A stretch of 64,000 nucleotides of DNA from Escherichia coli (GTDB lineage: Bacteria > Pseudomonadota > Gammaproteobacteria > Enterobacterales > Enterobacteriaceae). How positions within the stretch are numbered: the stretch's first letter is position 1; the number at the start of each line of letters is the position of its first letter. Positions 51,601 to 55,266 of the stretch are shown in pieces. The position numbers were made by a program. Location of the stretch: the NCBI RefSeq assembly GCF_045037415.1, contig NZ_CP173438.1. One strand, 5' to 3'.

Positions 51601-54600
51601 GAAATATTGGCGGAGTAATGATAAAAGGAACGTGGACTGACTCAGGGGGAGCTGCTGCATCTCCATCGTCTAACCAGGACTGGACTAATGCCGGAGATTC
51701 ATTGTCATTATTTAAACGTATGCTAATACTCTTTTGAGTCGCCGGATAAACAACACGGGTTCCCATGATAACTACACTACCCTGAACAACTGCAGATACA
51801 GATAGAGTAAAAAAAAACAGCACAAACCTTAGCATGGTATCTCCAGAAGAAAACAGGGCAGTATTTCCTGCCCAGAAATACAAAAGAGTAAAAAGTTTTT
51901 TATTCGTAGGCAATGGTATAATGGACCGTCGCTTTTACATCCCCTGCGGTAGATTGTCCTGTTGCATAATACTGGGCCATATAACGCAATGTGGCACTTC
52001 CATCAGATCCGATTGTCTCAGACTGGACATCTTGCCCATTATCCGCTTCCCCCAAAAGAATAGTTGAAGTTCCATTACTATTTAGCAACTGAATCTGTAC
52101 ATTATCCGCTTTAGTTGGAGTAGCAGTATTTTTTAAATTATGTGTAGCTAAGTCAATGTTACTTGAAGGCTCAAAGTACGCTTTAACATTCTGAGCACTA
52201 TTCATACCAGTTGCACAACCAGTTAAACGAATGGCAAAGGGTGTCAGCCCTGACGTAGCAGCATTGTCTTTTAGAGATGAAGTGGCAACAGTGGGTAAAG
52301 TTACTGCTAAGTCTTTGTCGCTTGTATTAACTGTGCAGGTCTGAGCTACAACTTTACCGGTAAACGTAATTGTTCCGTCATAGGCCATAGCTGAACCAGC
52401 AAACACAGCAGAAACAAATGTAGCCAATGCTATAACTTTTATTTTCATAAAATGAATTCCTGTTTAATTCCAGTATTGATCATTTGTTCAGCAATCATCC
52501 CCAACAAAACAATCATTTTCAAAATGTTTTTACCGATCGATAACCAGCGTATGATAGATTGCACCTATCATGATTGCTAAAACGATCGGGAAAAACGATC
52601 AAAAACCATATTTATTGTGTTGGTAATGACAAAAGATATGCTTTACCCTGAAATGAGCGACCTATTCATGAAAATATGTAGGTCTGTATTTGATTACTAT
52701 CATTGCTATATTTCCACTATCCAATTTATATTTCATGATTAAAATATACCTTTTTACACTATTATTTATTTGTTGCAGCTTGCCTGGCTTTATCTTATTC
52801 CGACTATTTTATGGTAGATACAGAATACAATTAATTAAACTTATTTAAAGATTTTATAAATACCATATTGGAGTTGACCGATAGATACCTACTAACAAGA
52901 GCAATCACCACCACCCCATGAGGTGGTTTAGGAATACAATCAATAAACAACATCCATGCCCGGCGACGTACATACCTGTTTGCTATGATATCTGTTACGC
53001 TACGCTTGCTAATTTACTGAAACTCAGCGTCTGTCGACGGAGATTCGTCCGGGCCCTGATACAACAAGGGCAAGAAAACCACCCGAAATACAGATATTCT
53101 TATAAAAATGGATCATATTTCCATGTGCAAGTTCAGCTGGCATCGTCCAGAATGCGTGTCCAAGAAATGAAGCAAGCACGGTATACAGGCACAGAATAAT
53201 GCTCACTGGCCGGGTGAAAAAACCAAAAACAATCATTAATGCTCCAACGATTTCGACAAGGACCACTATTGCTGCAGTAATCGCCGGAAATATAAGCCCA
53301 AGAGAGGCCATTTTATCGATAGTGCCAGTGAATGATAGCAGCTTGGGAACGCCGGATATCATATAAAGGCATGCCAGCATCAGACGGGCAAGGAGCAACA
53401 ATGCCGACGTGTAATTTCCCATATTAAAATACCTGATTTTATCCACTATCAATGCTCAGTCTCCTTGTTTCTGATAAAGCCCTGAGCCAAATCCTTAAGT
53501 GTACGAGCACCACTCAGTAACATTGCCGTCCTCAGTTCCGTCTTCAGGTGCTCAATGACACCGGCAACGCCCCCGACACCACCTGCTGCGATGCCATAAA
53601 GAACAGGACGTCCGACCGCAACAGCCGTTGCCCCAAGAGAGATAGCCCTTACAACATCAATCCCCCTGCGAATACCGCTGTCAAAAATGACCGGAACTTT
53701 GTGCCCGACTCTTGCAGCAACTTCCTGCAACTGGCTGATGGCAGAAGGAACACCATCAATCTGGCGACCACCATGATTAGACACCTGGATGGCATCTGCT
53801 CCTGCATCAATGGCAACCACTGCATCCTCACCCCTGAGGATGCCCTTGACAATGACTGGCAGCCCGGTGATTTTTTTTACAAACTCAATATCAGCCGGGG
53901 TCAGCTCAACTTTTTGGTTAAAAAAATCACCTTTGCCACCGTAACGGGGGTCATGATTACCGAACGTCGCTCCTGCAGGGAAAGGCGAGCTCATGCTGAG
54001 AAAAGCATCACTTGTCCCGGGACCAAGCGCATCCGCTGTGATAATAATGGCTGAATAGCCTGCCGCTTTTGCACGCTCCAGTAAACTTCGGGTCACACCG
54101 GCATCCGCGTTAAAATACAGCTGGAACCATTTAGGTCCTTTACTGGCTTTTGCAATATCCTCCAGAGAGCGGTTGGATGCCCCTGATGATTCATAAAGTG
54201 CCCCGGCCTTTTCTGCACCCGCTGCAGCAATCACCTCCCCTTCCGGATGGACGAACATATGCGCGCCCATAGGTGCTATCAGCAGGGGATGTTCCAGATG
54301 ATGGCCCAAAAGGTCAGTCCGGATATCAATGCTGTGGGCAGCAACTCCACTGAGTCGGTGAGGTAACAAAGGATAATCACTGAATGCCCTGCGGTTCTCA
54401 TGATACGTCCACTCATCTCCAGCACCATGAGCAATATATGCATACGCAGCTTCCGTCATCACATCTTTTGCTGAAGTCTCCAGTCTGTCCAGACTGATGA
54501 TATGAAGAGATTTGTTGGTCGATGTATCAGCATGTCCAGACGTTTTACTGATGATATGTGCCGTTGAAGATGAGATATTTTTGGCAAGGGCCGGTGCAGC

Positions 54601-55266
54601 TGACAGCCCTGCGGCAGATATTCCTAAAACGGCATTCTGAATAAAATTACGTCGGGAAAGAGGCATAATAAGCTCCATATATTATAAATAAGCCAGGTCT
54701 CCCTGGCTTATAATAATCATGCCACGCCCTGAAGCGGGTTGGTGTTGAAGGTATAAAGGAAAATTTTCCATTCACCATTAATTTTACTGAGGACAAAAAC
54801 TTCACGGTTCAGGTCAATAATGGTTTTCTGCTCTTTAAAGTTCGTTACAACAGAACCCACATGGTGGTGAGTGCGGACAACCGCGGTATCTCCGTTGATC
54901 CAGATAGAGTCAAACGCAAAATCGGTCTCAAACTTTTCACGCTTGAACAGATCATCGTACTGCCCCTGGCGTTTTTCTGTATTGTCAGCCGTCAACTTAT
55001 CATTCCACTGGGAATAACTTTCATCAGCAAACAGGCCCAGGATGGTTTTTGTATCCCCGGCATTCAGTGCGTTCTGATACTTGATTATCGTGTCATACAC
55101 GTTCTTCTGCTCAGTAGCAATCTTACTGAAGTGGTTTACTGAATTTGGCCACCTGAACAGAGGTGATATGCTCACCTCAGAACAACACAGGTGCCATAAT
55201 GAAAAAAAGAAATTTCAGCGCAGAGTTTAAACGCGAATCCGCTCAACTGGTCGTTGACCAGAATTA

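Follow-up and report, generated by a model that had tools for sequence, protein, structure and literature searches.

What could a flavoenzyme with an export signal, encoded immediately next to a small membrane protein, be doing in the cell envelope of Escherichia coli? The question is raised by two open reading frames (ORFs) that occupy positions 53024..54678 of a 64,000-nt stretch of E. coli DNA (contig NZ_CP173438.1, assembly GCF_045037415.1), hereafter called the window, in whose coordinates all positions are given; related loci and proteins carry handles of the form L0xx and P0xxx, respectively. An earlier note, made from the sequence alone, had recognised a two-gene module at this place, and this is borne out by a full-length match of one ORF to the family of dehydrogenases dependent on flavin mononucleotide (FMN) and a match of the other to the DoxX family. 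Both ORFs are real genes rather than chance reading frames and lie, together with a gene for an NTF2-like protein, on the minus strand. The module is best explained as the downstream end of an envelope operon that is associated with TetR, was acquired horizontally and sits on a genomic island of uropathogenic E. coli (UPEC). The operon may encode a periplasmic 2-hydroxy-acid dehydrogenase module, an overall reading which we put only somewhat ahead of even.

The enzyme matches Pfam profile PF01070 (FMN_dh) practically from end to end (E 1.3e-108; model positions 1-349 of 350, residues 70-403) and contains both the family signature SNHGGRQ and the stretch SRRNFIQ pointed out previously. The length of 409 amino acids first given to it follows from an ATG at 54678. 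The start at 54666 (MPLSRRNF) is to be preferred because GGAG lies 6 nt upstream of it, homologues begin with M-x-x-S-R-R and the Prokaryotic Genome Annotation Pipeline (PGAP) agrees, so that the protein most likely has 405 residues; inspection of the sequence downstream of 54666 found no further in-frame start with a ribosome-binding site. In the AlphaFold model, which has a mean predicted local distance difference test score (pLDDT) of 86, the barrel of residues 50-405 is confident. The nearest solved structures are L-lactate oxidases and dehydrogenases together with a Pediococcus 'putative lactate oxidase', with E values from 1e-66 to 1e-76 (3.5e-76 for 6r9v). By its sequence, the enzyme is a member of the lactate-oxidase-related branch of the HAOx family with the catalytic core kept. 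Its score of 308.9 bits lies below the 645.5-bit cut-off of the L-lactate oxidase equivalog TIGR02708, and its 200.4 bits below the 550-bit cut-off of the LldD-type L-lactate dehydrogenase model NF033901, which it matches in two separate stretches. A curated NCBIfam subfamily name was dropped for the enzyme, every equivalog scoring under its cut-off.

The N-terminus defined by this start has the architecture of a twin-arginine translocation (Tat) signal peptide, in which S-R-R-N-F-I-Q is followed by a Gly/Ser/Ala-rich hydrophobic (h-) region, NAVLGISAAGLSAAPALA (Kyte-Doolittle mean 1.4), and then by ALA and K. Residues R5 and R6 are invariant in all 52 aligned relatives (alignment A1), the neighbouring 45 residues being otherwise unconserved, and the twin-arginine (RR) motif is present in 119 of the 136 members of the enzyme clade as well as in 58 of 65 more distant outgroup relatives; most sequences without it are truncated ORFs, and L084, a cytoplasmic Gram-positive homologue, lacks it as well. 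Nearly all of the best 120 homologues in the protein search carry S/T-R-R-x-[FL], among them sequences from Klebsiella, Dryocola, Acidovorax, Halomonas, Sinorhizobium, Neisseria, Campylobacter and Pasteurellaceae. Residues 1-46 have pLDDT values below 50, as expected of a signal peptide and linker. The twin-arginine signal claimed by the earlier note is thus genuine by its motif, h-region, A-x-A site and clade-wide RR conservation, and the check that it had suggested, a search for homologues devoid of the N-terminal extension, leaves the reading standing because nearly all homologues keep it. On these features, the protein is predicted with high confidence to be a Tat-exported HAOx enzyme. We also observed a Psychrobacter subgroup (L010 and L012, proteins P0088-P0104) whose ORFs begin inside the signal peptide of their relatives (MSTQVFAAANDA...) and lack RR; either export has been lost in this subgroup or its genes use an unusual start codon.

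We then took a census of active-site residues by aligning the enzyme to the L-lactate oxidase (LOX) of Aerococcus, AvLOX, and comparing the corresponding positions over 136 sequences of the clade, which occurs in hundreds of proteobacterial species and has an F-G-N-H-D-P lid motif as its hallmark. The AvLOX residues Y146, D174, K241, H265 and R268 correspond to Y184, D212, K274, H298 and R301 of the E. coli enzyme and are kept in 134-136 of the 136 sequences. The alignment is ungapped from the TAD motif on. The equivalent of R181, the second carboxylate-binding arginine (R164 of glycolate oxidase), is Ser219 in E. coli, Ser or Pro in 133 of 136 members, and Arg in none. Three further positions have changed nearly throughout the clade: A95 is replaced by Gly (133/136), Y124 by Ala (135/136) and Y215 by Phe (134/136), the E. 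coli enzyme having the replacement in every case. The equivalent of Y40 is Tyr in E. coli and Phe in 118 clade members. Together, these substitutions describe a substrate pocket that is predicted to be larger and more hydrophobic, with a weaker carboxylate clamp. As a lead only, an A95G change in LOX moves specificity toward longer-chain hydroxy acids.

The second gene of the module encodes a protein with a clear match to DoxX (PF07681, E 9.4e-19); the match to the small subunit DoxD of thiosulfate:quinone oxidoreductase (PF04173) is not significant (E 0.75), and no DoxA-like gene was found in the locus. Of the four transmembrane segments ascribed to it before, three are strongly hydrophobic (approximately residues 14-36, 52-78 and 82-103), whereas the fourth, at the C-terminus, is weaker. 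A word-indexed homologue search with this protein returned E. coli and Klebsiella proteins only and is uninformative on wider contexts. The start of the enzyme gene had been described as overlapping the stop of the DoxX gene, but the order is the reverse: the enzyme gene lies upstream, and its TGA overlaps a candidate TTG start of doxX. The overlap is real only if this TTG is accepted, since the ATG chosen by PGAP (53422) leaves a gap of 26 nt after the enzyme stop. A coupled TTG start is plausible because AAGGAG precedes it by 8 nt and because the N-terminus that it adds resembles that of the Klebsiella orthologue: the residues MIVDKIRYFN align with the beginning of Klebsiella DoxX (MINHLRYLDIGKYSS) with one codon-sized gap, and Klebsiella has Ile where the E. 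coli protein has an internal Met. We infer the TTG start from these sequence features, and translational coupling of the two genes, in the form of an enzyme stop overlapping a DoxX start, is plausible even if not in the way originally described.

The module was initially seen as a two-gene unit next to a secreted SnoaL-like gene, a description that holds for the Sec-type signal and the NTF2/SnoaL-like fold of the latter product but misses that its gene is split in the window by the insertion sequence (IS) ISEc52, annotated by PGAP as 'IS3-like element ISEc52 family transposase, frameshifted'. Removal in silico of the IS and one TAC copy restores an ORF of 182 residues matching the intact allele WP_000680149.1 of strain 4/0, and the IS-free junction occurs at 100% identity in other E. 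coli, with 210 of 259 junction-matching genomes giving one contiguous match. In strain 4/0 the annotated order is a divergent TetR gene followed by those for a YybH-family protein (182 residues), an alpha-hydroxy-acid oxidizing protein (405 residues) and DoxX (132 residues). Because the IS-free allele of strain 4/0 shows TetR diverging from the NTF2-like, enzyme and DoxX genes, the native unit is a TetR-flanked envelope operon of three genes, the first of which is disrupted here. Profile matches of the NTF2-like protein are weak (SnoaL_2, E 0.003; DUF4440, E 0.005); its predicted model (pLDDT 84) is an alpha+beta cone of the NTF2/ketosteroid-isomerase type, matched by Foldseek to 3d9r with probability 1.0 and TMt 0.85. 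An N-terminal hydrophobic signal is present in all 42 aligned homologues (alignment A2), in which R-T-H-H is invariant, a third His is at least 90% conserved and a D-x-N-R-E motif is shared. The protein thus looks like a periplasmic NTF2-fold protein with a possible metal-binding or catalytic His cluster.

The control of this operon can be outlined only in part. The TetR protein is presumed to be its repressor solely because its gene is divergent from the operon; an operator palindrome for TetR did not stand out, and promoter and terminator scans gave no more matches than chance. The promoter candidate between the TetR and NTF2-like genes lies on the far side of the IS, which places enzyme and doxX 1.25 kb further from it. 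The window copy may be poorly expressed, ISEc52 having cut enzyme and doxX from the native promoter region, and the disruption lowers the immediate functional significance of this copy. The RNA between positions 54655 and 54735 folds with -27.8 kcal/mol (z = -2.7 against shuffles), and the hairpin that it contains ahead of the enzyme gene could be an attenuator or a stabiliser of the mRNA.

From these elements we propose the following mechanism. The native operon would begin with the gene for an NTF2-like protein exported by Sec; those for an FMN-dependent (S)-2-hydroxy-acid oxidoreductase, exported by Tat, and for a DoxX protein of the inner membrane would follow in that order. Loading with FMN and folding in the cytoplasm, then export to the periplasm, would be expected for the enzyme from the combination of a conserved catalytic core with a clade-conserved RR signal. 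In the periplasm, it would oxidise an (S)-2-hydroxy acid to the 2-keto acid, as its catalytic core, its altered pocket and its characterised relatives suggest; lactate is a less likely substrate than a medium-chain or bulky 2-hydroxy acid, because the pocket is enlarged and hydrophobic and the second carboxylate-binding Arg is lost. Nicotinamide adenine dinucleotide (NAD) is absent from the periplasm and the enzyme lacks a heme domain, so that quinone at the membrane and O2 are left as acceptors for the electrons of the reduced flavin. Quinone is favoured because related enzymes are dehydrogenases that reduce benzoquinone rapidly, and the enzyme would most likely be a dehydrogenase whose electrons go to quinone on the periplasmic side of the inner membrane. 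In the Enterobacteriaceae version of the system, the coupled DoxX might, speculatively, offer membrane docking or a quinone site, while the NTF2-like protein may bind or convert the substrate that TetR would sense. That DoxX is the electron-accepting partner is a tentative proposal, which we consider possible rather than likely. More doubtful is the full two-component version, a previously undescribed kind of periplasmic dehydrogenase in which the Tat-exported, heme-less FMN enzyme would act on bulky 2-hydroxy acids from host or microbiota, such as aromatic lactates or 2-hydroxy fatty acids, with DoxX as its quinone-reducing membrane subunit.

Several points weigh against a periplasmic 2-hydroxy-acid dehydrogenase module. 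Export, activity, substrate and contact between enzyme and DoxX are all predicted; because the enzyme falls under all curated NCBIfam cut-offs, no specific activity can be transferred to it. The complete lack of Arg at the R181 equivalent could mean that the substrate is not a simple 2-hydroxy carboxylate, and the presence of a catalase gene next to the enzyme in three loci would suit an oxidase producing H2O2. Finally, we surveyed the gene neighbourhoods of relatives, of which 486 were found in species-representative genomes, by searching 80 loci of other species with phmmer for DoxX-like ORFs within 8 kb; DoxX abuts the enzyme in none of the 80 loci, a DoxX-like ORF occurring within 8 kb in only five. 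The clade can thus do without a dedicated DoxX partner.

The same survey bears on the alternative that survives best, namely that DoxX is no functional partner at all, the two genes co-travelling on mobile DNA while DoxX acts independently, for instance in tolerance to quinone, electrophile or metal stress. We hold this to be a serious minority possibility. It gains from the absence of an abutting DoxX elsewhere and from the occurrence of DoxX genes in unrelated operons, such as the clusters of bufferins (copper peptides). The nearest of the five DoxX-like genes (phmmer E 1e-32), in Pseudomonas sp. ANT_H4 (L033), points the same way, being 3 kb from the enzyme across a LysR gene: over 3604..10832 of this locus the order is cytochrome b561, DoxX, WrbA (an NAD(P)H:quinone oxidoreductase), LysR and, divergent from LysR, the Tat-signal enzyme and a catalase. 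Against it stands a second occurrence of the pair, on IncF plasmids of Klebsiella (73 records; one Enterobacter plasmid and one E. coli plasmid have it too), where an enzyme 79% identical to ours is followed after 29 nt by a DoxX of 64% identity. Same order and tight spacing thus recur in two otherwise unrelated contexts; nucleotide homology with the Klebsiella plasmid extends from the enzyme start codon to inside doxX and nothing beyond, and since it is confined to these two genes, the pair is a transferred unit. The strong ribosome-binding site and the stop/start overlap in E. coli also speak for a connection between the genes.

Enzyme and DoxX as a unit are hence upheld for the E. coli island and the Klebsiella plasmids, but the co-occurrence of enzyme, DoxX and SnoaL-like genes that the earlier note proposed to check does not amount to a general partnership. 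DoxX and NTF2-like proteins as universal partners were rejected, the phmmer survey of the 80 loci giving no abutting DoxX and one adjacent NTF2-like gene (L023). The NTF2-like gene adjoins the enzyme in only some relatives, including two metagenomic contigs (L089 and L090), once upstream and once downstream, and is found without the enzyme in Neisseria zalophi and two other contigs; the partnership is lineage-specific. The usual neighbours elsewhere are a divergent LysR gene, a secreted metallo-beta-lactamase-fold protein of about 318 residues, a protein of 412-429 residues without family match, pirin and YceI, and an FGE-sulfatase-like protein is also seen among these variable neighbours. In the alpha- and beta-proteobacterial relatives L005 (1208..2446), L026 (9279..10568) and L093 (6115..7353), the enzyme is followed by the 412-429-residue protein (no NCBIfam match), then by a pirin-like gene in L005 and L093, and preceded in L026 by the metallo-beta-lactamase-fold protein, an operon unlike that of E. 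coli. In L085 and L086 (locus positions 350-10800), the Klebsiella pair sits amid genes for ZigA, a second COG0523-type GTP-binding protein, a small 'transcriptional repressor' and an iron-annotated ABC transporter (ATP-binding, substrate-binding and permease subunits), a setting which looks like a zinc- or metal-starvation island and hints at metal-limited expression.

Next in strength, and rather unlikely in our judgement, is the possibility that the enzyme is a periplasmic oxidase making H2O2 like the lactate oxidases of Aerococcus and streptococci, for competition or signalling, with DoxX protecting against oxidative or quinone stress. Its best NCBIfam and PDB matches are indeed L-lactate oxidases, and one of the three loci with an adjacent catalase is L033, which, by its gene set, looks like a locus for quinone and peroxide stress and bears on H2O2 production by the enzyme. 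The characterised relatives indicate otherwise: a screen of 42 new HAOx enzymes found most to be dehydrogenases with negligible O2 reactivity, true oxidases numbering 12 of 44 HAOx and O2 reactivity within the LOx cluster being limited to one clade (Tsvik et al. 2022; PMC9670274). In the same study, PauLDH from Photorhabdus australis was classed as a dehydrogenase, no O2 reactivity being reported for it, and related soluble lactate dehydrogenases reduced 1,4-benzoquinone at up to 125 U/mg (PMC9670274). Production of H2O2 in the bacterium's own periplasm would also be costly. Our search of the literature found no sequence determinants of oxidase versus dehydrogenase behaviour; judged from its characterised relatives (PMC9670274), the enzyme, left by the earlier note as an oxidase/dehydrogenase, is more likely a dehydrogenase.

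Still less probable, to our mind, is a departure of the whole clade from 2-hydroxy-acid chemistry toward a non-carboxylate alcohol, an amine or a modified peptide (cf. MftD of the same superfamily), with the NTF2-like protein supplying or processing the substrate. Ser or Pro at the R181 equivalent and the prevalent Phe at that of Y40 would fit such a change, as would an NTF2-like gene that is adjacent in E. coli, L089 and L090 among otherwise varied neighbours. Yet the clade conserves the His base as well as the equivalents of R268 and Y146, both of which take part in holding the carboxylate too, the E. coli enzyme keeps the Y40 equivalent, and all 41 active enzymes of the HAOx screen used 2-hydroxy acids (PMC9670274). 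Lastly, a cytoplasmic lactate dehydrogenase with a mis-called N-terminus, to which a few later-starting database entries (e.g., a 368-residue form) and the Psychrobacter ORFs might be thought to point, is effectively refuted by an RR motif and h-region conserved across phyla in an otherwise highly variable stretch, with no alternative downstream start having a ribosome-binding site.

A 2.3-kb stretch around the module is 100% identical to the chromosome of THO-003 and to many human and dog isolates, and approximately 250-260 of 5426 complete E. coli genomes (about 5%) carry the gene set; in the genomes examined, the neighbours of the module on this virulence island are pap, cnf1, hly and the four genes of a fimbrial operon. 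The flanks proposed earlier, fimbrial DNA on one side and IS elements, TetR and a SnoaL-like gene on the other, are as described save that the last gene is broken. The fimbrial operon directly downstream of doxX, named only 'fimbrial protein' by PGAP, probably encodes the Ucl (F17-like) fimbriae of GI-leuX (PMC9236248). Beyond the TetR gene, the flank is a patchwork of insertion sequences, including an ORF of 377 residues which we take to resemble an IS110-family transposase. On the other side of the fimbrial operon, two small ORFs match DanR and DanI of PAI_UTI89_II by description alone (139-bp gap, DksA-like zinc finger), the subject of that preprint being other genes of the same island (bioRxiv 10.1101/2025.06.10.658900). 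The features of the window are collected in table 1.

Table 1. Features of the module and its surroundings in the 64,000-nt window (aa, amino acids)
Feature	Position	Strand	Remarks
FMN_dh enzyme	53449..54666	minus	405 aa; PGAP 'alpha-hydroxy-acid oxidizing protein', WP_016238245.1
Predicted Tat signal peptide MPLSRRNFIQNAVLGISAAGLSAAPALA	54583..54666	minus	Likely cleavage before K29 (A-L-A/K)
DoxX-family membrane protein	53024..53422 or 53024..53452	minus	132 aa from ATG 53422 (PGAP); 142 aa from TTG 53452
Candidate coupling junction	53449..53466	minus	AAGGAG 53461-53466, 8-nt spacer, TTG 53450-53452 overlapping enzyme TGA 53449-53451 (cATTGA)
RNA hairpin UAAGCCAGG-GAGA-CCUGGCUUA	54689..54710	minus	10-bp stem; between NTF2-like stop and enzyme ribosome-binding site; A/U-rich tract follows
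NTF2-like ('YybH family') gene, 3' fragment	54717..55126	minus	First gene of native operon
NTF2-like gene, 5' fragment	56377..56518	minus	Sec-type signal peptide MKHFIATAVMASSLLFGSNALA, then ASSS...; in silico reconstruction
ISEc52 (IS3 family) in NTF2-like gene	55127..56376	plus	27-nt inverted repeats 55127-55153 / 56350-56376; TAC target duplication
Sigma-70-like promoter candidate	56631..56658	minus	TTGACT, 16 nt, TG-TATTCT; TetR/NTF2-like intergenic; consensus scan, match number not above chance
TetR/AcrR-family regulator, divergent	56688..57329	plus	PGAP; NCBIfam TetR-model matches all below cut-offs
Chaperone-usher fimbrial operon	47492..52448	minus	4 genes: major subunit, chaperone, usher, 359-aa adhesin
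Two small ORFs, 122 aa and 69 aa	44233..44601 and 44740..44949	plus	138 nt apart; second with four-Cys zinc finger (FCYNCG...FCDGDC)
Transposase ORF, 377 aa	58434..59567	plus	Beyond TetR gene
Transposase ORF, 522 aa	59677..61245	minus	Position of IS66 tnpC gene in other strains

Neither the enzyme family nor its export route is new, and members with a Tat signal are on record; the finding is otherwise ordinary. New with respect to the literature that we searched are the clade-wide loss of the second active-site Arg, the mobile enzyme and DoxX pair in Enterobacteriaceae and the link to a secreted NTF2-like protein within a UPEC island; a search for a Tat-exported lactate oxidase, for DoxX with an FMN dehydrogenase and for these genes in UPEC found no description. 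Should host 2-hydroxy acids be oxidised in the periplasm to feed the quinone pool, the operon would provide an accessory route of energy supply or detoxification for colonisation of the gut or urinary tract. If the doubtful two-component version proved true, a biochemical role of the DoxX family in Enterobacteria would be defined for the first time, and the respiratory chain of UPEC would gain a new electron input from the ucl/pap/cnf1 island. DoxX proteins are widespread without a settled function, and a tightly coupled enzyme partner, of which a close version moves with its DoxX on conjugative Klebsiella IncF plasmids, is a testable handle on them. For substrate discovery the clade is a cheap and well-defined target, because it has lost an active-site Arg that is otherwise conserved in the family.

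How does this system compare with those already known? Aerococcus viridans AvLOX and Pediococcus PaLCTO (PDB 2du2 and 6r9v) share its fold, an FMN-binding TIM barrel, and the Y146/D174/K241/H265/R268 set, but they are cytoplasmic proteins without signal peptide, and the E. coli enzyme differs from them in having Ser, Gly, Ala and Phe in place of R181, A95, Y124 and Y215, respectively. E. coli LldD and Pseudomonas mandelate dehydrogenase belong to the same superfamily; they are membrane-associated FMN L-2-hydroxy-acid:quinone oxidoreductases that pass electrons to the quinone pool. These enzymes act from the cytoplasmic side by way of a membrane-binding segment inside the lid loop, whereas the lid of the enzyme studied here is short and its N-terminus carries a Tat signal. 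The export logic proposed here is shared by the flavoprotein subunit of flavocytochrome c sulfide dehydrogenase, from an unrelated flavoprotein family: Tat-exported periplasmic flavoenzymes take up their cofactor in the cytoplasm and cross the membrane by Tat once they have folded. Such flavocytochrome c-type enzymes normally have a cytochrome partner, but none is encoded at the E. coli locus. The DoxX protein resembles DoxD of the thiosulfate:quinone oxidoreductase DoxDA in being a small polytopic member of the DoxD-like superfamily, the locus differing in the absence of DoxA; DoxD is a subunit of a quinone-reducing enzyme. In MexG, another DoxX protein, it is the DoxX domain that binds the quinolone PQS (PMC5477026).

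Among the enzymes of the HAOx screen (PMC9670274), of which the proteobacterial members favour 2-hydroxyvalerate or 2-hydroxyoctanoate, SsLDH from Shigella sp. FC1655 comes to mind as a possible counterpart. The cluster listing of our enzyme protein contains E. coli names only, and identity with SsLDH is unlikely, because the signal predicted for SsLDH is Sec rather than Tat and its clade keeps Y40 at 97% (PMC9670274). PauLDH is a close parallel in design, lying in the same HAOx branch with 44% identity over its full length (L042), an N-terminal Tat signal (SignalP score 0.972; PMC9670274), solubility, FMN and no heme domain; it is not lactate-specific and prefers S-2-hydroxyvalerate (PMC9670274). 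No DoxX or NTF2-like gene was found within 8 kb of the enzyme in Photorhabdus loci. Because PauLDH has a Tat signal, HAOx enzymes of this kind are already on record; unlike the E. coli clade, PauLDH has Arg at the R181 equivalent (GNRE) and no FGNHDP motif in its lid. The E. coli clade is a sister group distinct from the Tat-signal HAOx enzymes on record and apparently uncharacterised.

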